64,000 bases of DNA, from positions 9,096 to 73,095 of the forward strand of contig JBAYHH010000002.1 in assembly GCA_041666265.1 (NCBI GenBank), written 5' to 3'. Under the pieces are notes generated by a model. That model did not search any database. It had not been told where the DNA came from and was given only the letters and a program-made list of their open reading frames with translations. Positions 1 to 22,553 of this stretch are shown here, one piece after another. Made by a program: the position numbers and the translations under genes. Positions within the stretch are counted from its first letter, which is position 1. Every line of letters starts with the position of its first letter. This DNA is from Candidatus Magasanikiibacteriota bacterium (GTDB taxonomy: Bacteria; Patescibacteriota; Patescibacteriia; Magasanikbacterales; GWA2-37-8).

Positions 1-432
1 TTCGTATTGCTCGATGCCGAGGATGGTGCCAAAAGCGATGACTAATAAAATGATGACAAAAAACATGTTGGCCATGTCGCGCACCAGGACCCAACCGATC
101 TCGACCGCGGGCGAGCCGAGGTAGTCATTGTAGGACGCGACTTGGATGAGAAATTGGAGGAAAAACATGATCAGACGCAGAACCCAGCCGGTGAGCCAGA
201 TGGCCATTTGAGCGACACCTTGGGTGATCCAATTTTTGGCATCTTCGAGGGTAGTGTCTGAAGTCGGGGCGACACCGGTGGCGGTGCCGGCTGTATCCGC
301 CTGCGCCCACACATGCCCCACCCACCCGAGTGTCACCACGATCGCGAACGCGCCGACAAACACAAACAGCCGTCGATGCGCGCGGGCGAAGACGACGAGT
401 GTTTGGATAAATTGTCGGGTTTTATTTGGCAT
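1..432 (-). CDS. Partial CDS (N-terminal part; continues beyond window start). Secreted/membrane protein with signal peptide and two hydrophobic helices; possibly a VirB2/TrbC-like pilin-type protein
   Basis: The reverse complement from 432 reads MPNKTRQFIQTLVVFARAHRRLFVFVGAFAIVVTLGWVGHVWAQA|DTAGTATG...MAIWLTGWVLRLIMFFLQFLIQV...MANMFFVIILLVIAFGTILGIEQYE. The frame stays open to position 1. It is missing from the ORF track because no stop lies within the window. Confidence 0.5.
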   Translation of the reverse strand, partial: MPNKTRQFIQTLVVFARAHRRLFVFVGAFAIVVTLGWVGHVWAQADTAGTATGVAPTSDTTLEDAKNWITQGVAQMAIWLTGWVLRLIMFFLQFLIQVASYNDYLGSPAVEIGWVLVRDMANMFFVIILLVIAFGTILGIEQYE

Positions 433-440
433 AATTTGTT

Positions 441-600
441 AGATTCTTCGACTCCGTTTCACTGCGCTCAGAATGACACACGGCAATGACACACGGCATT
501 GTCATCCTGAGCGAGGCCGTAGCCGAGTCGAAGGATCTATTACTGTATATCCACAGATTCTTCGACTCCCCGCCTGCGGGCGGGTCGCTCAGAATGACAG
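441..600. repeat. Family-A GC-rich nested palindromic dispersed repeat (intergenic copy: about 1.5 units with arms GATTCTTCGACTC / GCTCAGAATGACA / TGTCATCCTGAGC / GAGTCGAAGGATC)
   Basis: The inverted-repeat arms are visible directly. The same core recurs at 11 or more other sites in the window. Confidence 0.8.
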
Positions 601-610
601 CGTGGTTGGG

Positions 611-3600
611 CTAATTCATCTCCGACGGCAACACGATGATGTGCCCATCATACGGAATGTAGGAATAATTGCCGGCATCGGGGAAATTCAAATTCAAACT
701 ATTTTGGTATTTACTGCAATATTGGGTGCCGTCGGATTCGCGCGCGATCGTATTGGGATTGTCCGGGAAATTATAGCAACCTCGTTGGATACCACGCGCG
801 TTTTTGGCATCGCCGGCCGCGGTCGAAGCGTAGCACCCGCCCGTGCACCAACCCCAATTATCCACGAGCTGGATGCGGGGGCGATAGGCGCAGACGATGT
901 CGCCGGTCTTGAGGAACGACCCGATGTGGGTTTCGGAAATTTCGATCTCGTCCGGCTTGAGCGGATTGGCGCCGACTTTCATGAGAGCATACGGCCCCTG
1001 CGGAAATTTCTTGTGTTGCGGGATATTATCCCAGGTGGTCGATGGCATGGGGCACTCGTAGATGTAACCGACTTCGGTGTAGCCCGCTTCGCAACCGGTA
1101 TCGTTGGAACTGCCAAAACCGCCAAAATATGTCTCGACATCGGACGGAACATTGGATAGGTAAGCATGGCACTGCCCGGTAGATTCGCCGATAGCGCAGT
1201 CTTTTGCGCTGGCACATGGCACTTCCGGATAGTTGGTGCAAAAATATTTTGTTGCATTACTGGCAAAACACCGCGGTTTGCGATTGGCGAGCGGACCGAT
1301 TGACGGCAAAGTAGCCTGATCCACATCTTTGAAAGTATCGGCAAAATCCACTTCCATCGAAGTGATCGGCATTTGGTTCGGATGCGCCCAAGAATAATAC
1401 CGAATCTTCACTTCAGCGCCGGCTTTGACCAAGATATCTCCGCGGATTTGATTATTCACGGAAAATCTGTCCAATGCGGATATTTTACAATTTCGTCCTT
1501 GATCTTCGCTGCAATCCTGGTAGATACCTTGCTCCTCATCGCCATAATGTGAACGATCCAAATCTGGCGCGGCGACGATCGGCGGAAAACGGGTGAAACG
1601 AGTCGCTCCCGGGGCAGCAGTATCAAAATATGAATTTGATTTTAATGGGTAATCAACTACTGTTTCTGAGATTCCCGGCCTTTCAGTATAATTAACTATA
1701 TGGCTATTTAATTCATAAATACCGTAAATTCGTCTGAACAATCTTTCCACCCACAAACAATAGATACTGTCTATGCTGGGCGAGCTGTTTACATTGAAAC
1801 CTGAACATTCGGTTTTAACAAAATTACTTGCTTCGTAGTCACGATTAATAAGCAAGGGGATACCGCTATCGCCAAATTCACTGAAACTACTGTCATAAGA
1901 TACTCCAAGACTAACCTGGTCACGAATTGTGCTACTATTAATATCAAACCAACCCAACGGTATTGTGTCGCCAACATCACCGCGATAATAATTGTTAAAA
2001 GTAAAATCGTATGGCCTGCCCGTTGAACGCAAATACCCGATCTCAAAAACATCCTTCATCAAGCCATATGGTTTATCGGGGACAAATACTGACCATGGAA
2101 TAATAAATTTCTTTTGAATTACGGTATCAGAAATAGATCGGTAATCATAAGGTTGACGCGCGCGCCAGGTACTTAGTAAAAAATTATTTTTACCTGCTTT
2201 CACTTGTGCGATACTGCGACAATATCCGAGAGTGATATCTTCAAAATAACCGACTACAACATATCCCAATTTCATTTCATTATCCAACGATCCGCAATAA
2301 CTTTCTCGAGCAGGTATGAACGGCGGGATATTACCTTGATCACAATCCGGTGGCACATCAAACCCTTTACATAAATCGACATTTACATACGATGTTTGAT
2401 TTGGAAATCCTGTCTCTATTGAACAAGTATACGACATCCGACGAAATCTTGATCCTGATTTTGTGATTCCAGCTCCCAAACCAGCATCCTCTTTATGATA
2501 AAATCCTCCATTAGCTATTTGAAACACAAGCGCTTTGTTATTTGTGCTCTCAATATTAGTTTCGCTAACTTTAATTTGAACAGATGAATAAGGTAAAACA
2601 TCGTATATCTGAAAAATACCGTTGTCAGCGCTACTTTCAGCATTTATATTTTCTTCGCAAAATGACCCACTGCTTTCTACGCCAGTCGTCATACAAGTTT
2701 TGTATTTTGACATCTGAGGCTGCGAAAAAGTTTGATGAAGTAAAATATATTTAATAGCATTTAGTCCTTCATGATCATCAATTATTGTCGAGCGATCAGG
2801 TTGAGTGGTTTCCCCGATATTCTTTTGTAGACGACTAATAACTTGATCGTTAGTTAAAATCGCATCTGTCCCTACTGCATTATATGTATTATCAACTCGT
2901 ATGGCTCGCCACTGATATACTGGAATTGGAGGCGACGAAGAACCGTCCAAAGTTTCTGTTAGCTGCTCAAATTTGCTCTTGATTTCCACATTTTGTCTTG
3001 TATTGGAAAGTGTGGAAACGGTATGATCTTTAATACCGGAATACAAGTTGTGATCACTGCTAATTTTGTCAAAATCAAACACCACTACTCCCGGAGCAAT
3101 CGGATAATTGCCGTGCTCCCACATGCCATTAATATTTTCGAGTGTCCAGACTGGGTCTGAATTAAGATTGATTGCTCTCGTCAAATATACTTCAGCTTTT
3201 ATTAAGCGATATTTTGTTTTGTCCCAAGTAAAATTATTCAGTACTTGTAGCTTGCCACTACCGGGATCAACCGTGCCCGATCCTAACACTGTATTAAACT
3301 TACTTTCCGTGCGACGAAATATAACATTTGTGCTTTGAGGTTCAGAATTGTGAATACATGCTAATTGCGCATCTGGGACTATCGACGACGACTGTGGAAA
3401 TACCACTCCAATATTTTCATCCAAACCCTGTCCTATGCAATCATTTTTCCAAATATTTCCATCGACAATATCGACCAACGCAGTATAGAATGGATCACCA
3501 AGCTGTAGATTTGTAATGGTATTTATACTGCTTTCGATACATTTAAAACGAGAATTATCGCCATCAAAAGTATCGCCAATATTACTATTATTGTACCATG

Positions 3601-6600
3601 TTCCACTCTCGTTTGCCGTAGCTCGATTATTCACCCCGGCCGGGCTATTCACCGGCAACCAACTAAGACACGCGTAATCGGGCGCATTGCTCATGGCCGT
3701 GCCATTGAGCGGACGGCGCAAATCATGCTCCAGACAATAACCTTTCCAGCCTGGGATTTCTTGGGTGGATTGGCGCGGGAGGCAGGTGCCGGCGAGGGTG
3801 GGGTTCTCATACACTTCAACTGTTTGCTGTATACCCAAACCACTATTTGTACACCTAAATATCAATGAAGAGTCACCGATTTGCATTTTTTCAGAAACAC
3901 CATCTGATATAGATACTGATCCTTCACAATCATGATAATAGACTTTATCGGTGCGATCACCTGCTACAAGGCAAGAATACACGCAAGTCGGCGGTGAACT
4001 ATAATTCTTCAATGACACTGAATCACCATCTTTTGCATACAAATTTCTTGGAAATGCAAGGTACTTCAAGCCAGTAGTCGCTATTCCGAAACTTGACGAG
4101 CTAAATCGATAATATGTCTTACCAACATTTGACGCATCATTTGCTGCACAATTCCACGGCTCCCCGGTCACGCTCCAATACCCTTTGGGCGCGCCACTAC
4201 TATCGAGCTCATTGGTCGGCACCTGTGGCCAATAAACAATTTTTTGATTGGACGGACTACTCCCCTCGGCGCCATATCCGAGCTTGTAATATCCACAATC
4301 ACAATCCTTCCCGCCGTTGGACTTGTCCTCACACAGTTTGACATTATCGAAACCCGGCCAAGAGCCGTCGCTCGATGACAGAGAATTTTTAAATACCGAC
4401 AACGGGAACGGCGAATTTGCCTCGGGATAACCGCGACAAGTGAATGAGCTCGTCACCACCTCGACATCGGACGGCGAAAAATGCGGCTGGTCACTGCGAT
4501 CAGTAAACATCGAAAAACCGGTGTAGTCGGGCCCGCCCCAGGTGATATCGCGATCGAGATAATTGACCATGCCGGCGCGCACGCTGAGGGCGCGATCGAC
4601 GATCACCTTGTCTTTGTCGGCGCGGGTCTCGGTGACATCGTGGGCGCATTTATTATCTCCCGAGCTGGGGAGAAATTTATCGCACACGCCGAGCATGTAG
4701 CACTCTTGTTCTTGTTTATTGGTAATCGGATTAAACCGGTAATTCGCCAGCCGGCAATAATCCCACTCGGCGCAAGCGCGGTCGGGCAAAGCTTGGACGA
4801 TAATATTGGCATCGAGCGTGCCACTGGCGATTGGCGCCACTTTTTCGCCGTTCTGGCGATTGCTGTCGCGATAAGTCAATCCGGTGTTCCAATATTTATT
4901 GACGATATCGGTCTGGTCGAGAAGCACGCACCCGAGATTGAGACTGGCCATGCCATTGCAGGCGCCGAGGCTGGGTTTGATTTTTTCGTTCATTAGTAAA
5001 TAATAACTCTGGCAGGGTTTGCCCGGCTGACAATCGTTTTTGTCGGTAAATTCGGTACAACTGTTTTGGCTAAGCGGACACTCGCCCACGAAACCGTTGT
5101 ATTTATTGTTGGTGCCATACGACCACAGATCATATTTCTGATAATCCACCAGATAATCCGGATAGCAGGCCTGCTTGTCGGTGTCGATGCATTTGGTCCC
5201 CTCGGCGCCTGAACAATCTGAGTCGACTTTACAATACGCGGGCGACTGCTCGCTGCTTTGGTCGCACCTACCCACGCCTTTCCAAAACCAGCCATAAGTG
5301 ATGCCATAGGGCGCTTTTTCGACGCGTGTTTGCCAACTGCAGATTTTTTGACCGATGACTTTGGGATCTTTAAAATACAAATCACCTTTGGACGAGCCAT
5401 ATTTATTACAACCGACTGCCTCGTTGGTGCACAAGGTGCCCGCGGAATTATTTGATCCAAAATAACCGTCCGGCAAATTTTTGACGCGCGTAGCGGTGAA
5501 TTTCGGACCGGATGGGGTGTCTGTTTGTTTGCCCGCGTCCATACAACCGACATTAGCGGCGGTGCAGGCGGATTTCTTGTCGGCTACGAGATAGATCGGG
5601 GTGGTCGAAGGGGTGTCGGCCGGAATGTGGATGGTGGAGGAAGTAATTTGGGCGGTAGTCGCGACAATATCCGCATAACTCTGATGTGAGATATTGGTAT
5701 AACACCCATAAGCGCCGGTTTCCGCGATACACGAATATTCAGTTCCACCAACCGTCACCGTTAATTTTCCGGCATCTCTTGGCCCGGGCAACCACACATT
5801 ATAATACCCTTCGCCGGTATCGCTCTGGGTATTTTGGGTGTCGATCACCGCGGTACAACCGACCGCATCCTCGCGACACAAATAACTGAAATTAGTGAGA
5901 TAAAATGGATTGTTATTTGGCGTCTGATAACGCGCGCAACCAAGGGCCTCGCCCGGCAAATTGTCGAGAGGATTGCTATCGCAAAGAGTGTTTACTGATA
6001 GAGATTTTTTGACGAGATAAATATAGTCTACCACTTCCATCAGTTTAATATTGTCAATATAGATTCGACCGGAATTATTGAGAGTAAATTTTAATTGCGC
6101 GGTCGAAGTGGCGCCGGCGAGCTCCACCGGCCCGAGATGATAATGTCTCCAAGAATCGCCGATCTCCACATCGCCGAGCGCTGTATTGGCATTATTAGCC
6201 AAGCTAATAGAAACTTTTTGCGTGCCACCGTTCGCACCCGTGCCTTTGGCCCAAAATGTCAAATCATAGCCTTTTTCCGGATTGAGTTTGAGATTTTTGG
6301 CGACAACGGCACTGCCGGCCGAAGCATAAAATGACAGCGAGTGTTCGCCGGTCTTGGTTGATTCACTGACGAGAGAAATACTGCCATTATTCGTGACCCA
6401 GCCCGCGAGCGCCTCGGTCGTAGAAGTATTTTCAAATTGATCGTAAAAAATATTACGGACATTATTGCCGGCATTGCCTTTGTAAGCGCGACAGGTCTCA
6501 ACCGCGGCCGAGCACACTCGGCTCACGCCCGCGGTGTTATTTTCACCGGCCGGCAAGCCATTGTAGTAGCAAAATCCGTCTTTGTACTCGCCATTATTGA

Positions 6601-9600
6601 AACAGAGCTCGCAATGATCGGTATTCCAATAGCCTTTTTTGGCGCTACATTCGGTTGCGTCCAAGCCGTCGGTTTCGGATTTCGCCGGCAACGCCTGCAA
6701 TTCGGCGGTATTTAATCTATAAGGCGTGCAGGTCTGCGACACCGGCACGGTCTGCGAAAGAATGCGATAATAGGTATGACCCTTATCGTCGGTAAATTGT
6801 CGACAATCCGGACTAACCGCATCGTCCCAGTCAACACTTTTTGACCCCTGGGCATACACCGTGGCATTGCAAACCAGTTTGAAATAATCCAAATCAGCCT
6901 GCGTGCGATAAAAATACGCCGGGCCGTCTTTGATCGCGTCCGCGTCCGCTTCGCCGGATTTATCTATTTTCAAAACATAACTTTTTAATTGAACACCCTC
7001 GGCTTGCGTGCTCTCGTAAGTGAAAAATTTCCCGCTTGTCGCCTGATCGGGCGTGATGCATGGGCGCAGATAGGCGTAGTAGTCGATTTTTTCCATTTGC
7101 CCCACGAGAGCGCTCATATTGGTAAAGGCGCTACAGCCCTCCTCGACAGCCGAACAGGTATTGCCGGACTTGGGGATAATATAGGCTAAATTTTGGCCAC
7201 GACTATAATTGCTCGGCATCTCGCGATAAGACGCGTAGCCCACGCATTTGGCGTCGCATTGGTCGTTCCAATTGAGCACCAGGCCATTGGCAATTTCCGC
7301 CGGATTAAATTTGCCCGGGATCTGCTCCCCGCTCGCCGAGGCCGTATACATATTACAATTTTCCTCGGCTGCGATACAGGGCTGGGCGTATTTGGCGCAC
7401 TCGGTTTTTTTCCAGGGCAATAAATTGGTGTTGATGCCATTGAGATCAGAAAGTGAATCGGGCCAGACGGTCGCGACCGATTCGGGACGGGCATTGTAGC
7501 ACCCGAGATAGTCCGGCGCCCGACGCAAATAAAGCGAGGCATCGTCGAGCGTGGCGGTATAGGCCGTGCAACCCGAGGAATTGCCGGTACAATCGGTCGA
7601 AACTTTGCCGTTGAAATGAATCGCGGTATTTTGAAAATTATTTGATGGTGTCGGCGCGCTCGCGGTGAGCCAATTACCGGCATCGTCTTTGGTCAAACTA
7701 TAAATGGCGCAACCGGCATTGTCGGCGTTGCATTTACCGGTGTCGAGCGTGCGATAAAGATAGCCGACTTGTTTGCCCGAGACATCTTTGAAACTGACAC
7801 AAGACGCGTATTGCTCCTCGCAATTGTCGGCGTTAAATTTCCAGACATTTTTTTCTTTGAGACAATAACCATAGCTCTGACAGCTCTTGCCGTCGAGACT
7901 GTAGCCCACGCACCCCTGCAAATCGGCGCATTCTTTGGAGCGATTGCCCGAGCCCGGCACCTCGATATCCGACCCGAAAACAAGCGCGTTACAGCGGTGG
8001 GGCGGGACTTTGATCACCCAATTCGGATTGATGAGGTGGCAAAACGGTTTCTTGGCATCATGGACAACATGGCCCTGCGCGTCATAGGTGCAATCATAAA
8101 ACCCGTTGACCACATCTTCGAGGGTCCAGGGGGCGTCCGGGTTGCTGTTGCGGGCGGCAATTTCAAACCCGAGCGGTAAGATGCGCGCCTGACGCATTTT
8201 TTTGACATTGCTATAACAATAGTATTTTTGATAGCACTGCGGGCTGGTGTCCTCGCTATTGGTGGGCGGGATCAGTTTGAATTTTTTGTGCAAAAGATCG
8301 CGTTGCATCGCCTGGGTGATGGTGAGATAGCGACCGGTGCTGTTGGGCTCGTTGAGCGCGGAGGCGAGGGCGTAATCGATGATACAATTATCCGGCGTGG
8401 GATTGGCCGGGCAAGCACCAAAAAGATTGACTAAATTCCATTCATCGATCGAATTGATTGGGGATTTGAGCAGATCGATAAACATCGCTTCGGCGACTTG
8501 GCGGCCGGATGCCGTGGTAGCGTCGGGATCTTTAGGATCCGGACCACCATCGTCATCCTCTGGTTTTGGTTCCCAGCTACCGTCATCATTGCCGATTTCA
8601 TCCAATCCCAATTCCGGCATCTCCGGCCAATCAAATTCTTGTTTTTTACAGACATCGGACACGCAAAATCCAAAAAGCATGCCGTTGTACATGAAGTTAT
8701 TAAGAACCTGAGAAAAAAAAGTATTAAAGAATACTGCCGGCGTGTAAATTAGCAAATCCTTCATCCCCGAAGCCATCGACGAATTGATCACCTGCGTGTT
8801 GGTCTTGGCTTTTTCCGAAGCCGATTGATTTTGAAATTCTTTTTGCATCACTTGCGCCGGAGTCTTGACATTGCCCGAGATAATATCCGACATGCCGATA
8901 GCACCCTGGCCTTCATCGCGCTGTTTCTCGGCTCCATAGGTATTCTCTTTGACGGTGCGATCGACTTTGGCGCTGGCATCGAGATAAATGCCAAGGTCGC
9001 TTTGATCGGGTTTGATGGAAAAATTAAAATTCTGCGCCATGTTTTTCCAATAGCGACTGCTCCCTACTTGTTTCCAGTTGCTCAAAAATTGGGTAAAAGT
9101 ACATTTTGGTTTTTCCGGAAAATATTTACCTTTGAGGCCGAGCCGCAAAGCCAAATCCAAAAACAAGGTCGGCGGGGCGCACAAATCGACGCCCAATATT
9201 TCACCAAGACCCTGTAAAAAAAAACCGGCCGCGTCGTTGCCCACACTCGCCATATAATCGCCGAAATTGTTGTAATGTGAAAACGGCGTCTCGCCCTTGC
9301 CACCGGCGGCGAGATAAACCGCGCTATCATAGGCGACACGCGTGATAAACGACTGAATCGCCTGCGTGATGCCCATATAGGCGGCCAAAAGCATCACTTC
9401 ATACCATTTCATCTCCACTTCTTTGGCGAAATATTTGGCGCGCAGGGCTTGGAGGACTTCGTTGATTAAGGGTAAATTTTGAAAATTATCAATAGTGGGG
9501 CCTGGTGAGACAACTGTCGTTGGTGCCCCGGGCACCTGCGCTCTCACCGACGCCGGCACGGCCAAACTCCCAAAAACCGACACCGACAAAAATACCGTTA

Positions 9601-9646
9601 CCGCGAAACAATAGACGATTTTTTTGAGTGTGTTGGGCATAAACAA
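611..9646 (-). CDS. Giant (3011 aa) secreted cysteine-rich surface protein with at least one carbohydrate-binding-module-like / jelly-roll domain
   Basis: Single uninterrupted ORF with an N-terminal signal/TM (MFMPNTLKKIVYCFAVTVFLSVSVFGSLAVPASVRAQ). It has very many Cys, NG and DG motifs. A CBM4/9-like segment is present (...LKFTLNNSGRIYIDNIKLMEV). It starts 1 nt after the upstream co-oriented gene. Confidence 0.85.
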   Translation of the reverse strand: MFMPNTLKKIVYCFAVTVFLSVSVFGSLAVPASVRAQVPGAPTTVVSPGPTIDNFQNLPLINEVLQALRAKYFAKEVEMKWYEVMLLAAYMGITQAIQSFITRVAYDSAVYLAAGGKGETPFSHYNNFGDYMASVGNDAAGFFLQGLGEILGVDLCAPPTLFLDLALRLGLKGKYFPEKPKCTFTQFLSNWKQVGSSRYWKNMAQNFNFSIKPDQSDLGIYLDASAKVDRTVKENTYGAEKQRDEGQGAIGMSDIISGNVKTPAQVMQKEFQNQSASEKAKTNTQVINSSMASGMKDLLIYTPAVFFNTFFSQVLNNFMYNGMLFGFCVSDVCKKQEFDWPEMPELGLDEIGNDDGSWEPKPEDDDGGPDPKDPDATTASGRQVAEAMFIDLLKSPINSIDEWNLVNLFGACPANPTPDNCIIDYALASALNEPNSTGRYLTITQAMQRDLLHKKFKLIPPTNSEDTSPQCYQKYYCYSNVKKMRQARILPLGFEIAARNSNPDAPWTLEDVVNGFYDCTYDAQGHVVHDAKKPFCHLINPNWVIKVPPHRCNALVFGSDIEVPGSGNRSKECADLQGCVGYSLDGKSCQSYGYCLKEKNVWKFNADNCEEQYASCVSFKDVSGKQVGYLYRTLDTGKCNADNAGCAIYSLTKDDAGNWLTASAPTPSNNFQNTAIHFNGKVSTDCTGNSSGCTAYTATLDDASLYLRRAPDYLGCYNARPESVATVWPDSLSDLNGINTNLLPWKKTECAKYAQPCIAAEENCNMYTASASGEQIPGKFNPAEIANGLVLNWNDQCDAKCVGYASYREMPSNYSRGQNLAYIIPKSGNTCSAVEEGCSAFTNMSALVGQMEKIDYYAYLRPCITPDQATSGKFFTYESTQAEGVQLKSYVLKIDKSGEADADAIKDGPAYFYRTQADLDYFKLVCNATVYAQGSKSVDWDDAVSPDCRQFTDDKGHTYYRILSQTVPVSQTCTPYRLNTAELQALPAKSETDGLDATECSAKKGYWNTDHCELCFNNGEYKDGFCYYNGLPAGENNTAGVSRVCSAAVETCRAYKGNAGNNVRNIFYDQFENTSTTEALAGWVTNNGSISLVSESTKTGEHSLSFYASAGSAVVAKNLKLNPEKGYDLTFWAKGTGANGGTQKVSISLANNANTALGDVEIGDSWRHYHLGPVELAGATSTAQLKFTLNNSGRIYIDNIKLMEVVDYIYLVKKSLSVNTLCDSNPLDNLPGEALGCARYQTPNNNPFYLTNFSYLCREDAVGCTAVIDTQNTQSDTGEGYYNVWLPGPRDAGKLTVTVGGTEYSCIAETGAYGCYTNISHQSYADIVATTAQITSSTIHIPADTPSTTPIYLVADKKSACTAANVGCMDAGKQTDTPSGPKFTATRVKNLPDGYFGSNNSAGTLCTNEAVGCNKYGSSKGDLYFKDPKVIGQKICSWQTRVEKAPYGITYGWFWKGVGRCDQSSEQSPAYCKVDSDCSGAEGTKCIDTDKQACYPDYLVDYQKYDLWSYGTNNKYNGFVGECPLSQNSCTEFTDKNDCQPGKPCQSYYLLMNEKIKPSLGACNGMASLNLGCVLLDQTDIVNKYWNTGLTYRDSNRQNGEKVAPIASGTLDANIIVQALPDRACAEWDYCRLANYRFNPITNKQEQECYMLGVCDKFLPSSGDNKCAHDVTETRADKDKVIVDRALSVRAGMVNYLDRDITWGGPDYTGFSMFTDRSDQPHFSPSDVEVVTSSFTCRGYPEANSPFPLSVFKNSLSSSDGSWPGFDNVKLCEDKSNGGKDCDCGYYKLGYGAEGSSPSNQKIVYWPQVPTNELDSSGAPKGYWSVTGEPWNCAANDASNVGKTYYRFSSSSFGIATTGLKYLAFPRNLYAKDGDSVSLKNYSSPPTCVYSCLVAGDRTDKVYYHDCEGSVSISDGVSEKMQIGDSSLIFRCTNSGLGIQQTVEVYENPTLAGTCLPRQSTQEIPGWKGYCLEHDLRRPLNGTAMSNAPDYACLSWLPVNSPAGVNNRATANESGTWYNNSNIGDTFDGDNSRFKCIESSINTITNLQLGDPFYTALVDIVDGNIWKNDCIGQGLDENIGVVFPQSSSIVPDAQLACIHNSEPQSTNVIFRRTESKFNTVLGSGTVDPGSGKLQVLNNFTWDKTKYRLIKAEVYLTRAINLNSDPVWTLENINGMWEHGNYPIAPGVVVFDFDKISSDHNLYSGIKDHTVSTLSNTRQNVEIKSKFEQLTETLDGSSSPPIPVYQWRAIRVDNTYNAVGTDAILTNDQVISRLQKNIGETTQPDRSTIIDDHEGLNAIKYILLHQTFSQPQMSKYKTCMTTGVESSGSFCEENINAESSADNGIFQIYDVLPYSSVQIKVSETNIESTNNKALVFQIANGGFYHKEDAGLGAGITKSGSRFRRMSYTCSIETGFPNQTSYVNVDLCKGFDVPPDCDQGNIPPFIPARESYCGSLDNEMKLGYVVVGYFEDITLGYCRSIAQVKAGKNNFLLSTWRARQPYDYRSISDTVIQKKFIIPWSVFVPDKPYGLMKDVFEIGYLRSTGRPYDFTFNNYYRGDVGDTIPLGWFDINSSTIRDQVSLGVSYDSSFSEFGDSGIPLLINRDYEASNFVKTECSGFNVNSSPSIDSIYCLWVERLFRRIYGIYELNSHIVNYTERPGISETVVDYPLKSNSYFDTAAPGATRFTRFPPIVAAPDLDRSHYGDEEQGIYQDCSEDQGRNCKISALDRFSVNNQIRGDILVKAGAEVKIRYYSWAHPNQMPITSMEVDFADTFKDVDQATLPSIGPLANRKPRCFASNATKYFCTNYPEVPCASAKDCAIGESTGQCHAYLSNVPSDVETYFGGFGSSNDTGCEAGYTEVGYIYECPMPSTTWDNIPQHKKFPQGPYALMKVGANPLKPDEIEISETHIGSFLKTGDIVCAYRPRIQLVDNWGWCTGGCYASTAAGDAKNARGIQRGCYNFPDNPNTIARESDGTQYCSKYQNSLNLNFPDAGNYSYIPYDGHIIVLPSEMN

Positions 9647-9647
9647 A

Positions 9648-10607
9648 TTATTGAGCGGCGGTGGACTGGGCCAGCGCGTTTAATATTTCTTGCACTGTAG
9701 TCATGATTTGCGCGTCGGTCATCTGGTCCACGCTCGCTTTATCCATCCCCTGTTTGATCAATAAAACGCGCGCGGTAGTAGGATCGGATAATTGCTTGAG
9801 TAGGTCAGCCGGCAACGATACATTTCCGACCGTGGTATTGGGCGCGGTAGCGGGCGGTGTCGTCACTGTCGGCGCGATCGCTGCCGACACAGAGCTCGAT
9901 GTCATTTTGCCGCTAAGCGCGAGCGCGGTGAGCGAACCCAAAATCGATGGACTGGACGAACTATAGGCGGCAAAATCCCGATTGCTCTCTTCGATTGCTT
10001 TGGCCACCATCGCTTTGATATCCGCGTCACTTAGACTATTCAAATCATCGGCGCTCGTCCCCTGTCTTTGCAATAAATTACGCACCGCGGTCGGATCGTC
10101 TTTGAGTTGATTGAGGAAATTCATCTGAGCATTGCGCGCGTCGGCAGTGAAATCATGATCAGACGCGAATCCACCGGATAATTGCGCGTAAGAAAATGTC
10201 CCGCTCGCGCTGGCTGTGGCATAAGCGCTCGCTACCTGCGTCGAGCAATACTTGCCGTGCGGACAAAGCGGATTTTCATTTTGGACAATCTCTTGTTTGT
10301 CGGCGATGCCGTCGCTGTCGGTGTCGGCGAGATACGGACTCGTGCCATAGACATACAATTCCTCGAAATCACTAAGGCCGTCATTGTCGGTGTCGCGATA
10401 CGCGAGCGTCTCCACACCATTGACTTCATTGCTCACCTCGGCGGGCACGCCGCTCCCAAGCTGAAACGGGCTATACATGGTATTGCGCAGTTGGAGCACC
10501 CCGAGGCCCAGCGCGGATACGGCAAAAACCAGCAATAAAACAAAACCCACTTTCTGTTCATGCGAAAGTTTTCGGATAGATTGTTGGGGCGATGCCTGAT
10601 CGTCCAT
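9648..10607 (-). CDS. Membrane-anchored protein with thrombospondin-type-3-like Ca-binding repeats (DTDNDGLSDFEE, DTDSDGIADKQE) and an internally repeated C-terminal region
   Basis: The ORF track extends to 10685, but that extension overlaps a terminator hairpin of rsmA. A start at MDDQASPQQ (10607) is followed by a TM helix. The gene is probably translationally coupled to the giant gene. Confidence 0.65.
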   Translation of the reverse strand: MDDQASPQQSIRKLSHEQKVGFVLLLVFAVSALGLGVLQLRNTMYSPFQLGSGVPAEVSNEVNGVETLAYRDTDNDGLSDFEELYVYGTSPYLADTDSDGIADKQEIVQNENPLCPHGKYCSTQVASAYATASASGTFSYAQLSGGFASDHDFTADARNAQMNFLNQLKDDPTAVRNLLQRQGTSADDLNSLSDADIKAMVAKAIEESNRDFAAYSSSSPSILGSLTALALSGKMTSSSVSAAIAPTVTTPPATAPNTTVGNVSLPADLLKQLSDPTTARVLLIKQGMDKASVDQMTDAQIMTTVQEILNALAQSTAAQ

Positions 10608-10651
10608 AATCCAAATAGTTACGAAATTATTATACCATAATTTTTTACAAA

Positions 10652-10680
10652 AAACCACAGCCCTGGGGCTGTGGATAACC
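10652..10680 (-). terminator. Rho-independent terminator downstream of rsmA (stem CCACAGCC/GGCTGTGG plus T-run); contains the DnaA-box 9-mer TTATCCACA
   Basis: The minus strand reads GGTTATCCACAGCCCCAGGGCTGTGGTTTTTTGTAAAAAA. Confidence 0.55.
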
Positions 10681-10703
10681 TTCATAATTATTACTACCGA
10701 TAT

Positions 10704-11849
10704 TTAAAGCTTCTCTGCTAATATTTTCCACTGCTCGACCGACAACTCCTGCGCTCGGACGGTGTTTTTTAGCCCCATTTCGTCAAAAACTTTGGCTAAT
10801 TCCGATTTTTTGGCGAGTGATGACAAGTTTTTTATCAAAAATTTACGACGATTGGCAAAACCGAGGCGAGCGATATCGAAAAAGCGTTTGGTGAACGCGA
10901 CAGATTCTTCGACTCCGCCCCGCCAGTCGGCGGGGCTGCGCTCAGAATGACAGGTGGGATCAATTGCCGGCTCACCGCCACTTGTCATCCCGAACGAATG
11001 TGAGGGATCTTCGTTGGTTTTACTTGTTGTTGGAGATTCTTCGCTTTGCCTGCCTGTCGGTAAGCAAGGCTCAGAATGACAGACATGGCCGATCACCGAA
11101 TCACTATTTTTTATATTTGATTTTTTATATTTGATTTTTATAATCGCGCTATCCACTTTTGGCTCGGGCCAAAAATTATCTCGGGTCACGACTGCCACTA
11201 TCTCTGGCTCGCCGTAATATTGCACAGCCAAAGATAATAGCGACATATCGCCCGGTCGCGCGCAAATTCTTTCGGCCACTTCTTTTTGCACCATCACGGT
11301 CATCGTCTCGGGCGGATTATTTGATTCTAAAAATTTACGAAGGACTTGAGATGTTATCTGGTATGGTAAATTCGCGATAACCTTATATTTTGTTTGGGGC
11401 GAGAATATTTCTTGTGAGCGGGTTATGCGACCGCAGTCGCATCCTTTCGCGCTCGCGCGCGAAAAAAGCGAACAAGATGTATTCTCGCCCCAATCAAAAT
11501 TCGCATGCAAAACATTCCCCCAGATAATTTGTAAATTTTTTATCGGAGCCAATCCCTCGCTTTGATCAGACTGACAAAATCGAGCCCAATATTTTTGTAA
11601 TTTTTTTTCAATCTCAAACGCGACCACTTGACCGGCGGTTTCGGCGAGCGCAAATGTCAGTACGCCAAACCCGGGTCCAACCTCGACCACGGTATCATTT
11701 TTTGTCACCCCCGCGGCCGCGATCATTTGATCGATCACTTCCGGGTTGATCAAATAATTCTGCCCATATTGACGGCTTGGGCGCAATCCGGCCTGCTGGC
11801 ATAAGTGTAATAAATAGTCGGGATTGAATAGCTTTTCGCGCATACTCAT
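10704..11849 (-). CDS. rsmA: 16S rRNA (adenine1518/1519-N6)-dimethyltransferase RsmA/KsgA, carrying three in-frame repeat-derived insertions
   Basis: The N-terminus has the KsgA signature ...LRPSRQYGQNYLINPEVIDQMIAAAGVTKNDTVVEVGPGFGVLTFALAE. At 381 aa it is about 100 aa longer than usual. The extra segments map exactly onto repeat DNA. Confidence 0.9.
   Translation of the reverse strand: MSMREKLFNPDYLLHLCQQAGLRPSRQYGQNYLINPEVIDQMIAAAGVTKNDTVVEVGPGFGVLTFALAETAGQVVAFEIEKKLQKYWARFCQSDQSEGLAPIKNLQIIWGNVLHANFDWGENTSCSLFSRASAKGCDCGRITRSQEIFSPQTKYKVIANLPYQITSQVLRKFLESNNPPETMTVMVQKEVAERICARPGDMSLLSLAVQYYGEPEIVAVVTRDNFWPEPKVDSAIIKIKYKKSNIKNSDSVIGHVCHSEPCLPTGRQSEESPTTSKTNEDPSHSFGMTSGGEPAIDPTCHSERSPADWRGGVEESVAFTKRFFDIARLGFANRRKFLIKNLSSLAKKSELAKVFDEMGLKNTVRAQELSVEQWKILAEKL
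10903..11082. repeat. Family-A palindromic repeat copy inserted in-frame in rsmA (encodes ...[56 protein letters not shown]...)
   Basis: The arms GATTCTTCGACTCCGCCCC...GCTCAGAATGACA and TGTCATCCCGAACGAATGTGAGGGATCT...GGCTCAGAATGACA are present. Confidence 0.85.
11104..11145. repeat. Family-C AT-rich short tandem repeat (AAAAATCAAATATA x2) inserted in-frame in rsmA (encodes IKIKYKKSNIK)
   Basis: A direct tandem is visible. Nearly the same unit sits in uvrC in the same frame. Confidence 0.7.
11393..11492. repeat. Family-B element (core TGAGCGGGTTATGCGACCGCAGTCGCATCCTTTCGCGCTCGCGCGCGAAAAAAGCGAA within a perfect 22-bp inverted repeat TTGGGGCGAGAATATTTCTTGT/ACAAGATGTATTCTCGCCCCAA) inserted in-frame in rsmA
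   Basis: It encodes WGENTSCSLFSRASAKGCDCGRITRSQEIFSPQ between conserved KsgA segments. The core is shared with the copies at 16356 and 29552. Confidence 0.8.
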
Positions 11850-11982: not shown

Positions 11983-13128
11983 TCATTGAGCTAAACCGAC
12001 ATCGCTATAAACATTGCGCGCGTTCCACAGTATCCACCCATCGGCACGGGCGTCATCGCTCGCCCGAATTTGCGCGCTGATCTTGTCGCTATCATAGATC
12101 GCCCCCATATTAAACGCCTGCACCCAGGCGCGCAGACGCGCTTTTTGACCACTCGCCTGCTTCACTCCCGCGCTCATGGCGCTATACACCACTTCATAGG
12201 GGTGGTCGGCCGGATTTTTAAAATTTAAATAATTCGCGGGGTAGTGCGACGGATATACCATCGGGCACACATAATCAAAAAATTTCACCGCGTCTCCGAG
12301 GCGCTGGCCGATGCGCATATCGTCTTCGCCGTATTTTTCCGTGGTCAGGCCAAATAAATCCGCCGAAAGATACACGGGTTGATCTTTCATCTGCTCGGAA
12401 AAATATTTAAAAAAGTCCGCGATCACTTCGTAGCGTTGGCGCCCGCCGAGCTCATACAAAATATCGCTCATGTTGCCGTCAGTGGGAAAACGAATATAGT
12501 CGAGATTGATCTCGTCAAAACCAAGCTTAGCCGCCTCCTTCGCGATCGATACGATATAATCCCAAATTTCCGGACGAGCGGCGTTGACCCAAGCCAAATT
12601 ATTTTTATCGCGCCATGACTTGGTCGGATCGGATTTTGATTTGATCGCCCACTCCGGTTTTTTTTCCGCCAAAATCGGATCTTGAAAAGAGCTAACGCGA
12701 GCGATGGTGTAAATATTATGGCTTTTCAATTTCGCGATCAAGGCGCGCATATTTTTTACGCGCGTGTCTTTAAGTTTATTTTTTATCACAAACGGCAATT
12801 GCGAATCATACAAAACATAACCGGAATAATCTTTGATGTCGATAACGATGGAATTGAGTTCGGTGCGCTCGATGAGGCCGATGATCTCGTCGATTTTTTT
12901 GAGGTTGCCGGCGGAATAAGCGGTGAGATAGAGTCCTTTCACTTTTATCGGCGCGTGCTTGGCGCGTGCTTGGTTTTGACCAAGCGAATTTTCGGTAAAC
13001 GCCGTCATGGTACTTAGATCGTCGATTTGAGCGACTGAAATCTCGGATAGCGAGACCACAAAAACACACGCAAAAATCGCCGTGGACACAAATACTATCC
13101 AGATGGTTTTTTGGTCGATGCCGGACAT
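11983..13128 (-). CDS. Putative glycoside-hydrolase-like TIM-barrel protein (DUF4015/GHL family) with N-terminal TM anchor
   Basis: The core reads ...GLYLTAYSAGNLKKIDEIIGLIERTELNSIVIDIKDYSGYVLYDSQLPF...IARVSSFQDPILAEKKPEWAIK.... The likely start is MSGIDQKTIWIVFVSTAIFACVFVV (13128); the track ORF extends to 13221. Confidence 0.65.
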   Translation of the reverse strand: MSGIDQKTIWIVFVSTAIFACVFVVSLSEISVAQIDDLSTMTAFTENSLGQNQARAKHAPIKVKGLYLTAYSAGNLKKIDEIIGLIERTELNSIVIDIKDYSGYVLYDSQLPFVIKNKLKDTRVKNMRALIAKLKSHNIYTIARVSSFQDPILAEKKPEWAIKSKSDPTKSWRDKNNLAWVNAARPEIWDYIVSIAKEAAKLGFDEINLDYIRFPTDGNMSDILYELGGRQRYEVIADFFKYFSEQMKDQPVYLSADLFGLTTEKYGEDDMRIGQRLGDAVKFFDYVCPMVYPSHYPANYLNFKNPADHPYEVVYSAMSAGVKQASGQKARLRAWVQAFNMGAIYDSDKISAQIRASDDARADGWILWNARNVYSDVGLAQ

Positions 13129-13304
13129 AGCTTGTGTATTATACTGTGGATAAACCATCTTGACAATCACCACAAAATGTTGTAGTATTAAAGTAATGGT
13201 AGGTTTAGCTGTAAAGAACATTTACGCTCCGAACTCCAAAGCTCCCGCAAGGGAGTTTTTGGTTTTTATATTGTGTGATATAATTATTGCGCTGTCACCG
13301 AGAC

Positions 13305-13415: not shown

Positions 13416-16310
13416 TTAAAGTACGCGTTTAAGGTAGTGGCCGGTCGAGCTCACGGATTTTTTGGACACCTCCTCGGGCGTGCCGATGGCGATGATTTCT
13501 CCGCCCTTATCCCCGCCTTCGGGACCGAGATCGATGATCCAATCACAAGATTTGATCACATCGAGATTATGTTCAATCACCAGCACTGTATTACCTCGAT
13601 CCACCAGTCGCTGTAAAACCACAAGTAATTTTTTGACATCTTCGTAATGCAATCCGGTCGTGGGTTCGTCGAGCAGATACAAAGTTTTGGTCGTGCCATA
13701 GCGAGCAAGCTCGCGCGAAAGTTTGATCCGCTGAGCCTCGCCGCCCGATAGGGTCGGCGCGCTTTGACCCAAAGTCAAATAATCCAAACCGACCTCATTT
13801 AATATTTTTAATTTGTCGTAAATCATCGGGATGTCGCGAAAAAAATCTTCGGCGTCGGCAATCGTCATCTCCAAAATATCGGCGATTGATTTACCATTGT
13901 AATGCACAGCCAGAGTTTCGTTGGTAAATCGTTTGCCTTTGCACACATCGCAAACAATTTGCACGCTTGGTAAAAAATGCATCTCGATTTCGAGCGTGCC
14001 TTTGCCTTCGCAATTTTCGCATCTGCCCCCGGGCACATTGAAACTAAATCGACTATGACTAAACCCGCGCATGCGCGCTTCGGCGGTCGAGGCGAACAAA
14101 TCGCGGATATGATCAAAAGCCTTGGTATAAGTGGCGGGATTACTACGACTGGTGCGTCCGATCGCGCCCTGATCGATCGTGATGACGCCATCGAGATATT
14201 CCGTGCCGGTGACGCTGTGACATTTAACTTCTTTATCGGTGCGAAAAAGTTTGTTGATTACCGCTTGGCGCAAAACATCGTTCATGAGGGTGGACTTGCC
14301 CGAACCGGACACGCCGGTGAGACAAACAAAACGGCGCAAAGGAATCTCCACGGAAATATTTTTTAAATTATGTTCAAACGCTTTTTTGATTTTTAATTTG
14401 GGGGTCGAACTGCCGACATCGCGCCGTCGAAGCGGGAGCTCGATTTTCTTTTCTCCCCGGAGATATTGACCGGTGAGCGATTTTTTCGCGTCGCCGATAA
14501 TTGCTGTCCCAAAATTGTCATTCTGAGCGGAGTGAAACGAAGTCGAAAGCCTGCCCTGAGCGACAGTCGAATGGGAATCTATTCGCTTTTTGACGCCCTT
14601 GGATCCTTCGACTCGGCCTTGGGCCTCGTTCAGGATGACATTAACCGGACCGCTATAGACGATCTCACCGCCGTGTTTGCCGGCGCCGGGACCAATATCC
14701 ACCATCCAATCACTCTCGCGAATCGTATCTTCGTCGTGCTCCACCACGATGATAGTATTGCCGGCCTCGCACAGCGCGCGCAGAGTTTTGACGAGCTGAT
14801 CATTGTCGCGCTGATGAAGCCCGATCGTGGGCTCGTCGAGCACATACAGAGCGCCCACGAGTTTGGTGCCGACTTGCGACGCGAGCCGAATGCGTTGAGC
14901 TTCGCCGCCAGACAAAGTGCCGGCGCGCCGATTGAGGGTGAGATAATGCAGTCCCACATCATACATAAATTGCAGACGATTTTGGATTTCTTTTAGTACC
15001 ATGCCGGATATTTCCAATTCGCGCGGATCCATGTCCAATTCCGCCTGCGCGAAAAATTCGCGCGCCTCGGCGATCGACAAATTGGCCACTTCCCAAATAT
15101 TTTTTTGATGAATTTTTACCGCGAGCGCGTTGGTATTGAGGCGTTTGCCGGCGCACTGCGGACAGATTTCCGTGCTAAATAATTCTTTGGTGCCGAGACC
15201 GGTACAGGCCTCGCAATATCCATACGGACTATTAAATGAAAACAGGCGCGGTTCGATTTCAGGAAAAGAAAAACCGTCGTTCGGACACGAATACTGGGTG
15301 GAAAAAATCTGCTCATGGCCATCGGGATAAATCACGGCGCACAAACCATTGGACAAGTCGACCGCCGTTTCCACCGCTTCGGCGAGACGCTGGCTCACTT
15401 TATCTGTCATCCCGAACGAATGTGAGGGATCTCCACTCGTTCGTTTTTTGTGTCTTGGAGATTCTTCGCTTCGCCTGCCTGCCGGCAGGCAAGGCTCAGA
15501 ATGACAATCGTCATACGAAATTTTATCCACCACCACCTCAATCGTATGCTTATTATTTTTTTCCAAATCTATGCGCTCGCGTAAACTTTTTATTTTGCCA
15601 TCGACGCGCACTTCCAGAAATCCGCTATTGTAAAAATCGTAAAGCATCTGATAATATTCGCCTTTCCGACCACGCACCACGGGCGATAATATCGTCAACT
15701 CACCAACATTGTCATTCTGAGCGGAGCGAAGCGGAGTCGAAGAATCTATTCGCTTTCCATTGTTTTTAGATCCTTCGATTCGGCCCGCCGATTGGCGGGC
15801 CTCGCTCAGGATGACAGCGCTCATTTCATCGACAGTCATTTTTTCTATTCGGTGTCCGCACTGGGGACAATGAGGCACGCCCACGCGCGCGTATAATACG
15901 CGCAAATAATCATAAATCTCGGTGATGGTAGCGACGGTCGAGCGCGGATTGCCGGAGTGCGCTTTTTGATCAATGGAAATCGCCGGCGACAAACCCTCGA
16001 TCTCATCGACATCGGGTTTTTGCATACCACCCAAAAATTGACGGGCGTAAGCGGAAAGAGATTCAATATATCGACGCTGGCCCTCGGCAAAAATAGTATC
16101 AAAAGCCAAACTCGATTTTCCCGAGCCTGACAACCCCGTGAATACCACCATTTTGTTGCGTGGTATTTCCAGGTTAATATTTTTTAAATTGTGCTCGCGC
16201 GCGCCTTTGATGATTATCTTGTCTTTCATATTTGTTTTGAAACGCCAAATCGGCCCGAAAATCGAACCGCCTAAAACACTACCATGAAAAGAGCGTGGGT
16301 ATAATACCAA
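13416..16310 (-). CDS. uvrA: Excinuclease ABC subunit A (UvrA) with three in-frame family-A repeat insertions
   Basis: Two ABC ATPase modules are present ([23 protein letters not shown]; [15 protein letters not shown]), plus Zn modules and LSGGEAQRI signatures. The likely true start is MKDKIIIKG (about 16229). Three segments ([33 protein letters not shown]; [35 protein letters not shown]; [37 protein letters not shown]) coincide with repeat DNA. Confidence 0.95.
14516..14640. repeat. Family-A palindromic repeat, in-frame in uvrA
   Basis: TGTCATTCTGAGCGGAGTGAAACGAAGTCGAAAG...GGATCCTTCGACTCGGCCTTGGGCCTCGTTCAGGATGACA. Confidence 0.85.
15405..15506. repeat. Family-A palindromic repeat, in-frame in uvrA
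   Basis: TGTCATCCCGAACGAATGTGAGGGATCTCC...GAGATTCTTCGCTTCGCCTGCCTGCCGGCAGGCAAGGCTCAGAATGACA. Confidence 0.85.
15710..15816. repeat. Family-A palindromic repeat (full unit with outer and inner inverted repeats), in-frame in uvrA
   Basis: TGTCATTCTGAGCGGAGCGAAGCGGAGTCGAAGAATC...GATCCTTCGATTCGGCCCGCCGATTGGCGGGCCTCGCTCAGGATGACA. Confidence 0.9.
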
Positions 16311-21896: not shown

Positions 21897-22553
21897 TTAA
21901 TTTTTGGCCGATGTAATTTTAACCTTGCCGGACGGGGTTTTGCCATAAACTTTGATCTTATCCCCCACATCTAAAAATTTGTAAATTTGACTGGCGTCGG
22001 CGGTGGTCAGATTTATGCACCCGCCGCTGCGCGGTCGAATGCCAAAATCATTATGCCAATACGCGCCGTGCAAATACAATCCGCGCTTGGCCTCAAACAA
22101 CATATTCCATTTGGTATTGGGATAGCTCCCGCCGGTCACCGTGCGATAAGTTTTAACCGGAATTTTTTTCAAAATTTTGTATTCTCCGGTCGGCGTCGGT
22201 ACTCCCGGCCGGCCGGTCGAAGCGAGCATCTCGCCGATGCGCACGCCATTGACCAGATAATAAAATTTTTGGGTGGTGAGGTCAGTCTCGACTGCGCGGG
22301 TGATTTTTCTACTGCGACCGCCCTCAAACGGACTAAAACCATTTTTGATTTCCGCGCCATCGTAATATCCGTCGTTATCAGTATCGGGATTATTGGCGTC
22401 TGTGCCCAGTTTGATTTCAATCGCATCGGATAATCCATCTTGATCAGCATCGACAATGGCGGCCCAAACCGGCTGACTGATAAAAAAACCGGCGGTCATA
22501 ACCGCGACAACGATGGACGCTAAAATAGCATTTGGTTTTTGTATGATCGTCAT
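21897..22553 (-). CDS. L,D-transpeptidase (YkuD domain) with N-terminal signal/TM and Ca-binding D-x-D-x-D-G repeats
   Basis: The catalytic motif HGAYWHNDFGIRPRSGGCINL is present, with N-terminal DADQDGLSDAIE and DTDNDGYYDG repeats. Confidence 0.85.
   Translation of the reverse strand: MTIIQKPNAILASIVVAVMTAGFFISQPVWAAIVDADQDGLSDAIEIKLGTDANNPDTDNDGYYDGAEIKNGFSPFEGGRSRKITRAVETDLTTQKFYYLVNGVRIGEMLASTGRPGVPTPTGEYKILKKIPVKTYRTVTGGSYPNTKWNMLFEAKRGLYLHGAYWHNDFGIRPRSGGCINLTTADASQIYKFLDVGDKIKVYGKTPSGKVKITSAKN

Follow-up and report, generated by a model that had tools for sequence, protein, structure and literature searches.

Much of bacterial diversity belongs to the Patescibacteria, and to our knowledge those cultivated so far are all epibionts. 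Here we analysed a stretch of 64,000 nt (the window) of Candidatus Magasanikiibacteriota contig JBAYHH010000002.1, positions 9,096-73,095, which carries near its start a gene for a giant secreted protein, a gene for a membrane protein with TSP3 repeats and the first codons of a gene belonging to a type IV secretion system (T4SS). Coordinates are those of the window unless given with a numbered locus such as L001. The T4SS of Patescibacteria (VirB4, TrsD, PrgI/VirB3 and VirB6) is related to the MPF_FATA type of monoderms; a relaxase is usually missing, and KsgA is often encoded nearby (Quinonero-Coronel et al. 2025, PMC12102498). The same survey reported rsmA/KsgA as a neighbour of virB4, found that the loci are often origin-proximal and that VirB2-like pilins are common near virB4, frequent if not universal, and stated that there were 'no adhesins, such as PrgB', genes without profile matches being left grey (PMC12102498). 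In the one Patescibacteria model that is genetically tractable, the T4SS is indispensable to epibiotic growth (PMC10633639), and epibiotic growth of Southlakia epibionticum needs both its T4SS (SEML1_0006-0019) and glycan-binding adhesins (Wang et al. 2023, PMC10633639).

The present locus shares with these systems a core of VirB4, PrgI/VirB3, TrsD/TraC-like and VirB6/TrbL-like proteins, and it is chromosomal and situated beside rsmA/ksgA. It differs in that the giant/TSP3 pair lies outside the described components, in that no VirB2 pilin is encoded between the giant gene and virB4, and in that the VirB6-like protein carries a charged C-terminal extension of ~750 amino acids (aa). Like PrgB (aggregation substance) of pCF10, the giant is a large, predictedly Sec-exported protein encoded beside an MPF_FATA-type T4SS, with a presumed role in contact. 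However, it has no sequence or domain homology to PrgB-type adhesins, no LPXTG motif and no Ag I/II-type Pfam domain, and it is far larger, disulfide-rich, contains a carbohydrate-binding module (CBM) and is paired with a TSP3 membrane protein. Other symbionts or predators, with small genomes or an episymbiotic way of life, also have very large secreted proteins that are implicated in cell-cell interaction, namely the Omnitrophota giants (bioRxiv 10.1101/2023.11.21.568195) and Apilactobacillus Giant1-5 (PMC12863079). The giant reported here is not known to be homologous to these and differs in architecture, with cysteine hairpin motifs in place of Ig-like tandem repeats. We regard the giant as a candidate T4SS-locus surface adhesin that is non-homologous to known adhesins, and the giant/TSP3 pair, which lies directly upstream of the T4SS cluster, as a candidate for the host-contact part that this system has so far lacked; the 2025 survey found no adhesin with Patescibacteria T4SS (PMC12102498).

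The giant protein and its TSP3 partner

The giant gene (611..9640, minus strand, as are all features of the protein given below) encodes 3,009 aa from the ATG at 9640, the start used by gene callers, or 3,011 aa from an alternative TTG start at 9646 (open reading frame (ORF) 611..9646, minus strand). Its NCBI entry (locus tag WCT40_00780) is a 'hypothetical protein' of a Candidatus Magasanikbacteria metagenome-assembled genome, and the protein is also present, with exact sequence, on a Logan contig. Residues 1-36 (9533..9640) form a predicted Sec-type signal peptide, recognised from sequence, hydropathy and the family consensus PAxAQ, with cleavage expected between ...PASVRA and the following Q. 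This is the sole strongly hydrophobic segment of the protein. There is no transmembrane (TM) segment after the signal peptide and no LPXTG/sortase motif, and the C-terminus reads ...HIIVLPSEMN.

The mature protein begins with a conserved domain (aa 37-340; 8621..9532) that an AlphaFold2 model of aa 37-1210 (mean predicted local distance difference test score, pLDDT, 62) renders as helices of low confidence; well modelled in the same run are aa 406-546 and ~715-1205. A profile built from 17 relatives of the N-terminal domain had no PDB match and, in Pfam, DUF4141 was matched weakly by 2/17 relatives (E = 0.0075). A VirB5-like (T4SS stalk or tip adhesin) or T4SS_pilin-like identity was considered for this domain and gained no support, since the 17-relative profile found neither a VirB5/TraC chain in the PDB nor a VirB5 family in Pfam. 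We treat the matches to DUF4141 and DUF3852, both weak, as noise or leads only. After a poorly conserved acidic linker comes a family-specific alpha/beta domain (aa 395-562; 7955..8458), which is the most conserved part of the giant and holds the motif RILPLGFEIAA. This domain of 165 aa is confidently modelled, with no structural relative in the PDB and no match to an enzyme fold.

Two cysteine-rich regions follow, separated by a lectin-type domain. Region I (aa 563-1060; 6461..7954) contains repeated C-x5-6-C-x2-[YF] motifs and invariant Cys pairs, and the conserved region II (aa 1200-2025; 3566..6043) likewise has invariant Cys pairs, together with the motif GYCLExDxSR...ACLTWLP. A scan with C-x5-6-C-x2-[YFAVLI] gave 16 matches in the giant, 14 of them within these two regions. 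The protein as a whole contains 105 Cys (3.5%), as against 0-6 in the other proteins of the T4SS locus. Between the two regions, aa 1064-1187 (6080..6451) form a beta-sandwich of the CBM4/9/16/22 type. The match to CBM_4_9 (PF02018) is the single Pfam match of the giant and is marginal (26.4 bits against a cut-off of 25.9). This segment is modelled with a pLDDT of about 80-90, and in a Foldseek search against the PDB the CBM16, CBM61, CBM22 and CBM4 jelly rolls dominate (E = 2e-8 to 1e-6), with target-normalised TM-scores (template modelling) of 0.6-0.7. These structural matches confirm the lectin-type CBM domain. Thus, the description of the giant in the initial annotation, as a cysteine-rich protein with a CBM4/9-like domain, was upheld on both counts. 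As in CBM families 4, 9, 16, 22 and 61, the domain is a beta-sandwich jelly roll of about 125-150 aa that scores above the Pfam gathering threshold; it differs from them in lying in the middle of a non-enzymatic giant and in being only 13-23% identical. Pfam detected no catalytic or toxin domain in the giant.

The last third of the protein is less uniform. A cassette of about 680 aa (aa ~2030-2715; 1496..3553) stands out by alignment and by base composition. Its identity to relatives in the family alignment is 5-13%, and for aa 2190-2450 no alignment is obtained even with the nearest relative, whose identity over the remaining sequence is 57%. The GC content of the cassette region is 0.37-0.41 compared with about 0.5 for the rest of the gene. 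Such low-GC hypervariability suggests, on sequence grounds, cassette exchange or recent acquisition. The protein closes with a semi-conserved C-terminal domain (aa 2716-3009; 614..1495) recognised by conservation and by the motifs VDWGD and DNWGWCxGxC; judged by eye from these motifs, and without Pfam support, it looks PKD-like.

A word-indexed search returned 96 relatives of the giant, of 2,200-3,500 aa and all unnamed or 'hypothetical'; most of those with a named source are labelled Magasanikbacteria. In a scan of one genome per GTDB species, relatives were found in 372 GTDB species. Moreover, an exhaustive hidden Markov model search with the aa 395-562 domain gave 1,170 representatives of 50%-identity clusters at E <= 1e-3 and 1,112 at E <= 1e-10. 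Among the 150 matches listed, nearly all full-length (2,500-3,500-aa) proteins hold this domain at about residues 300-610; the shorter proteins that carry it are probably fragments. Given this nearly constant position in full-length giants, the domain is a family signature and not a widely shared module.

The gene that precedes the giant on the same strand encodes a single-pass membrane protein of 319 aa (9648..10607, minus strand; called start at 10607 within an ORF spanning 9648..10685), with a TM helix at aa 20-38 and Asp-rich TSP3 repeats of the form DxDxDGxxDxxE (DTDNDGLSDFEE...DTDSDGIADKQE). It matches TSP3_bac (PF18884) with E = 2.5e-6 and 27.7 bits against a cut-off of 25. The gap between the TSP3 gene and the giant is 1 nt from the TTG start or 7 nt from the ATG start. 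Upstream of the TSP3 gene lies rsmA/ksgA (10704..11849, minus strand; 381 aa; RrnaAD E = 1.2e-49), which is lengthened by in-frame insertions of a palindromic element, and directly upstream of rsmA lies a gene for a putative glycoside hydrolase of the DUF4015 family with an N-terminal TM anchor (11983..13221, minus strand; PF13200 E = 2.7e-99). The DUF4015 protein could be a wall hydrolase, in a VirB1-like role, or act in envelope glycan metabolism.

We compared the gene neighbourhood across 85 loci. Each locus shows one copy of the giant with a conserved core of 1,800 aa. In 52/54 informative loci the TSP3 stop codon falls between -13 and +251 nt from the estimated start of the giant (median about 10 nt). 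The gene that comes next upstream is rsmA in 45/51 loci, and in 47 of about 54 loci with enough upstream DNA the DUF4015 gene precedes rsmA, on the same strand in every case. The next genes in the window, uvrA and uvrB, are each retained in only 1/80 loci, so the synteny is local and not genome-wide. The giant and TSP3 genes form a conserved pair, so far unannotated, that is specific to Magasanikbacteria, which are ultra-small bacteria of the candidate phyla, and to their close relatives (Patescibacteria, class ABY1).

The initial annotation had put the giant and the TSP3 gene in an apparent operon and noted rsmA as co-oriented with them. The three are indeed co-oriented on the minus strand, with the 1-nt gap (TTG) or 7-nt gap (ATG) between the last two. 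The TSP3-giant pair alone looks like an obligatory operon, and the giant is probably translationally coupled to the TSP3 gene. Membership of rsmA in the operon is weakened, although its gene order is conserved. Between it and the TSP3 gene there is a terminator-like hairpin (10674-10655, minus strand; a stem of 8 bp, 6 of them G-C, with a T-run behind it), which makes co-transcription of rsmA with the pair doubtful in this genome. A TSP3_bac repeat also occurs at the N-terminus of an L,D-transpeptidase (YkuD; 21897-22553, minus strand) elsewhere in the window; the motif therefore looks like a general extracytoplasmic one in this organism, not specific to the partner of the giant.

The T4SS of Patescibacteria is already known. 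In the literature searched we found no prior description of the giant family, and to the extent of that literature the giant/TSP3 module is undescribed, as are the signature domain and the conserved position of the module. The family offers a confidently modelled 165-aa domain without a PDB relative and an invariant pairing of TSP3 protein and giant.

The secretion cluster beyond the giant gene

Sequence beyond the start of the window was read from ENA contig k141_944606 (118,786 bp), which was found through an exact-sequence match of the giant protein. On this source contig a single strand carries, in order, the giant gene, a VirB6-like gene, three genes without known relatives in Pfam, PrgI, a TrsD/TraC-like gene and VirB4, the T4SS genes beginning 178 nt downstream of the giant gene. 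Thus, the type-IV-like apparatus that the initial annotation had expected beyond the window start is present, represented by VirB6-like, PrgI, TrsD/TraC-like and VirB4 proteins.

The truncated ORF at the window edge (1..432, minus strand) is the first 144 codons of a TrbL/VirB6-like polytopic membrane protein of 1,196 aa, the complete gene occupying L001 19209-22799. Some 7 hydrophobic segments within the first 360 residues of this protein are followed by a long charged tail, an extension of about 750 aa that is probably coiled-coil. The protein itself has no Pfam match, and a profile of it against PDB sequences returned coiled-coil noise only. Relatives were found with the first 464 aa as the query, the 144-aa fragment alone giving 2 matches. 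Of the 25 aligned relatives, 6 match PF04610 (TrbL/VirB6), with a best E of 5.7e-8; relatives also carry precomputed PF04610 and PF19590 (TrbL_3) assignments, and one bears the NCBI name 'type IV secretion system protein'. By transitive homology across these sequences, the protein is classed as VirB6/TrbL-like. An N-terminal polytopic TrbL/VirB6 domain with a long hydrophilic extension recalls the extended VirB6 proteins (TraG of the F plasmid; the VirB6 paralogues of Rickettsiales and Anaplasma, PMC7648143); however, the extension found here is non-homologous to theirs.

This ORF had initially been read, from its truncated form, as a small signal-peptide protein with two TM helices and a VirB2/TrbC-like topology, and the giants as plausible attachment adhesins, perhaps linked to a pilus or a type-IV-like apparatus. 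The signal-like N-terminus followed by hydrophobic helices is real, and VirB2-like pilins are common near virB4 (PMC12102498). The protein is not small, however, and with 1,196 aa, ~7 hydrophobic segments, TrbL/VirB6 relatives and no match to PF04956 or PF18895 its identity as a VirB2/TrbC pilin is refuted; the profile test gave no pilin-family match at E <= 0.1 to 0.5. Moreover, tightly packed genes fill the stretch from the giant to virB4, and no pilin-sized gene or PF18895/PF04956 match was found among them. The combined reading, with this ORF as a pilin and the giants carried on a pilus, is in our estimation hardly credible.

Between the VirB6-like gene and PrgI lie genes for three soluble proteins of 666, 395 and 365 aa (L001 22812-27131), none with a Pfam match. 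Most related T4SS clusters share the 365-aa protein (25-49% identity), and it is therefore probably an undescribed component of this type of T4SS. PrgI (VirB3-like, 144 aa) has two TM segments and matches PF12666 with E = 5.2e-11 (43.4 bits against a cut-off of 27). The TrsD/TraC-like protein (215 aa) carries a precomputed PF26593 assignment and matches TraC_F_IV with E = 7.2e-5, under the gathering score. The VirB4-type ATPase (624 aa) carries precomputed PF01935 (DUF87), PF12846 (AAA_10) and PF19044 (P-loop_TraG) assignments; its first 255 aa match TraC_F_IV with E = 6.4e-6 and its relatives are 59-84% identical. No relaxase or coupling protein was seen in the window or in L001. The spacer between the giant and the VirB6-like gene (433..610, minus strand) is strongly structured (predicted RNA fold of -75.8 kcal/mol, z = -6.6) and holds copies of a palindromic repeat at 442-475 and 556-596.

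Of the 48 loci that offer 3 kb or more of downstream DNA, 32 have a homologue of the VirB6-like protein downstream of the giant, co-oriented with it and no more than 6 kb away; homologues of the 365-aa protein, PrgI, TrsD and VirB4 usually come next. The T4SS link is thus not obligatory, given the other 16/48 loci. Those 16 loci mostly belong to a subfamily about 30% identical to the present giant. T4SS adjacency occurs in both subfamilies (for example L060 and L084, at about 30% giant identity) and also in L004, L005 and L086 (about 24-31%). Directly after virB4 in L084 (27605-28177) there is a gene for a bitopic protein of 190 aa, with an N-terminal TM helix and a domain of ~150 aa, a topology like that of VirB8/PrgL.

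Two further loci were reached starting from distant VirB6-like proteins. L087 encodes, in order, a secreted protein of 1,758 aa, pilins, VirB6, rsmA, PrgI, TrsD, VirB4, yidC, rnpA, dnaA and dnaN, so that rsmA stands between VirB6 and PrgI, with dnaA/dnaN at a distance of 3.5 kb. L088 has rsmA and VirB6, then genes as far as VirB4, and then a Cys-rich protein of 1,176 aa. Inspected by eye, the 1,758-aa protein (L087 1829-7105) shows a pair of TM segments like that of pilins and an SLT-like motif (KESSCG...GMGYAQFQP); in the 1,176-aa protein (L088 17217-20747) a pilin-like N-terminus precedes a Cys-rich body. Hence, rsmA is a landmark of the T4SS locus across Patescibacteria, and large secreted proteins recur in such loci. 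Because rsmA neighbours virB4 elsewhere (PMC12102498) and sits between VirB6 and PrgI in L087, the giant/TSP3 pair is nested between two landmarks of a T4SS locus. Both rsmA and the T4SS genes may be conserved neighbours of the pair that are transcribed separately from it.

Possible roles of the giant/TSP3 pair

We propose, with a probability of roughly 45%, that the giant and its TSP3 partner form a surface module, a disulfide-stabilised lectin fibre held by the TSP3 protein and acting beside the T4SS in host contact. The TSP3 protein would serve as a single-pass membrane anchor with calcium-binding repeats outside the cell. Sec would export the giant, and oxidative folding would turn it into a rigid, extended fibre. 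Retention at the surface by the TSP3 partner is proposed because the giant has neither a TM segment after its signal peptide nor a sortase motif. Through its CBM and the variable cassette, the fibre might bind glycans of a partner or host cell, and binding would put the cell envelope, together with the neighbouring MPF_FATA-like T4SS, in touch with the target, a role that would resemble that of the surface adhesins of Gram-positive conjugation without homology to them. Gene content, gene order and their conservation, the signal peptide, the domain folds and the T4SS components are observed, whereas we infer the surface retention, the glycan or host binding and the functional coupling to the T4SS. 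The label of a putative adhesin agrees with the CBM fold and the signal peptide as well as with the hypervariable cassette and the disulfide-rich repeats. The proposal also fits two published results, the lack of an adhesin in the Patescibacteria T4SS survey (PMC12102498) and the need of Southlakia for both a T4SS and glycan-binding adhesins (PMC10633639).

Several observations weigh against this proposal. The intact rsmA-TSP3-giant block is found in 16/48 loci that lack the downstream VirB6-like gene, and DUF4015 and rsmA are more constant neighbours of the giant than the T4SS is. The gap between giant and VirB6-like gene ranges from 77 nt to 6 kb in relatives and is here filled by the very stable structured spacer, and the two genes probably belong to different transcription units. 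In part, the synteny may reflect a gene order near the origin that was simply inherited. In the protein itself, the Pfam score of the CBM barely exceeds the cut-off (26.4 vs 25.9), the model of the N-terminal domain has low AlphaFold2 confidence, and the CBM could bind the cell's own wall polymer instead of a host glycan.

The main rival explanation is that the pair is a general component of the envelope unrelated to the T4SS. Here giant, TSP3 and DUF4015 proteins would build or decorate the wall or an S-layer-like coat, the CBM would bind the cell's own wall glycopolymer, and proximity to the T4SS would reflect shared origin-proximal placement. The loci without an adjacent T4SS (16/48), in which the block persists, keep this explanation alive. 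It also accords with DUF4015-rsmA-TSP3-giant being the most conserved block (47 of about 54, 45/51 and 52/54 loci), with the single giant copy per locus and its conserved 1,800-aa core, with the TSP3 repeat on the L,D-transpeptidase of the window, which ties the motif to the wall, and with the frequent origin-proximal position of Patescibacteria T4SS loci (PMC12102498; L087). However, the T4SS adjoins the giant in two thirds of loci, over giant identities of 27-57%, while uvrA/uvrB synteny is lost (1/80); a hypervariable low-GC cassette is more typical of partner recognition than of a structural coat; and other lineages have different large secreted proteins inside their T4SS loci. We consider a purely envelope-related role less likely than the proposed surface module. 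Were it correct, the giant would still be a lineage-defining surface component of Magasanikbacteria.

The giant might instead be released, as a polysaccharide-processing scaffold or an effector like a polymorphic toxin, with an active or toxic cassette and the TSP3 protein as a helper in export or immunity. Its AxA-type signal site, the lack of a later TM segment, LPXTG motif or other anchor, and the CBM and DUF4015 hydrolase in the neighbourhood would all suit such a factor, and the C-terminal cassette varies as those of polymorphic toxins do. Yet the giant has no catalytic or toxin domain by Pfam, its signature domain matches no enzyme fold, and the variable part is internal and followed by the semi-conserved C-terminal domain, leaving no terminal toxin tip. 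Nor does a small immunity-like gene follow the giant, the next gene being the VirB6-like one. A released toxin or enzyme scaffold is less likely for lack of a detected catalytic domain and because the variable part is internal, and we hold it to be improbable.

Returning to the surface module, a broader and in our view doubtful hypothesis is that giant and TSP3 protein are an unrecognised extracellular arm of the Magasanikbacteria T4SS. The giant would be a disulfide-stabilised lectin fibre carrying a domain of novel fold; its conserved N-terminal module would dock on a VirB6/TSP3 membrane complex and the exchangeable low-GC cassette would set host range, other Patescibacteria lineages using for this role different large secreted proteins from their T4SS loci, perhaps fused to pilins. 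A widespread unannotated family (372 GTDB species) beside T4SS genes, with a lectin domain and a hypervariable cassette, is a testable candidate for host recognition in class ABY1.

Palindromic repeats and the remainder of the window

A palindromic repeat (GTCATTCTGAGCG ... GAGTCGAAGAATC) occurs in 4 exact-pattern copies, compared with 0 expected, and in further half-sites. Sites were recorded at 442-475, 556-596, 10903-10949, ~11080, 14517, 15505, 15713-15746, ~15815, 35930, 55062 and 63894. Several copies lie in frame inside ORFs, uvrA among those affected, and judging from coordinates groEL, prmC and the second uvrA contain half-sites as well. Two copies in rsmA encode peptides CHSE...EES, and RsmA has 381 aa compared with 274-305 aa in relatives. 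The repeat family resembles the Rickettsia palindromic elements, whose copies are inserted in protein-coding genes.

The window is otherwise occupied by housekeeping genes, including uvrA/B/C, yidC, nusA, comEC, leuS, groES/EL, trmD, tsf, rpsB and prfA/B. An origin of the T4SS from an integrative and conjugative element or a plasmid was considered and is unsupported, housekeeping chromosome extending all along the window. A second giant protein of 1,979 aa (38946-44885, minus strand) had been assigned a CBM4/9-like domain, FN3 modules and Ig-like repeats and tentatively linked to a pilus or type-IV-like apparatus. Pfam finds CarboxypepD_reg x4, fn3 x2 and E-set/ML-like domains; CBM_4_9 gave no Pfam match in this protein at E <= 0.1. 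The link to secretion was not borne out, the gene being flanked by trmD and tsf/rpsB, away from any secretion genes.

Two UvrA paralogues are encoded within the 64 kb (13416-16310 and 61777-63999, both minus strand), the first with several insertions of the palindromic element. Two overlapping ORFs (51260-52480 and 52465-53070, plus strand) divide a sulfatase-family gene between them, covering Pfam Sulfatase positions 2-192 and 213-301; the split may represent a frameshift, a pseudogene or an assembly error. Lastly, the leucyl-tRNA synthetase (25686-28811, minus strand; 1,041 aa) contains an alpha/beta-hydrolase-like insert (Abhydrolase_6, aa 481-584, E = 3.6e-8) positioned between the editing and anticodon-binding domains.

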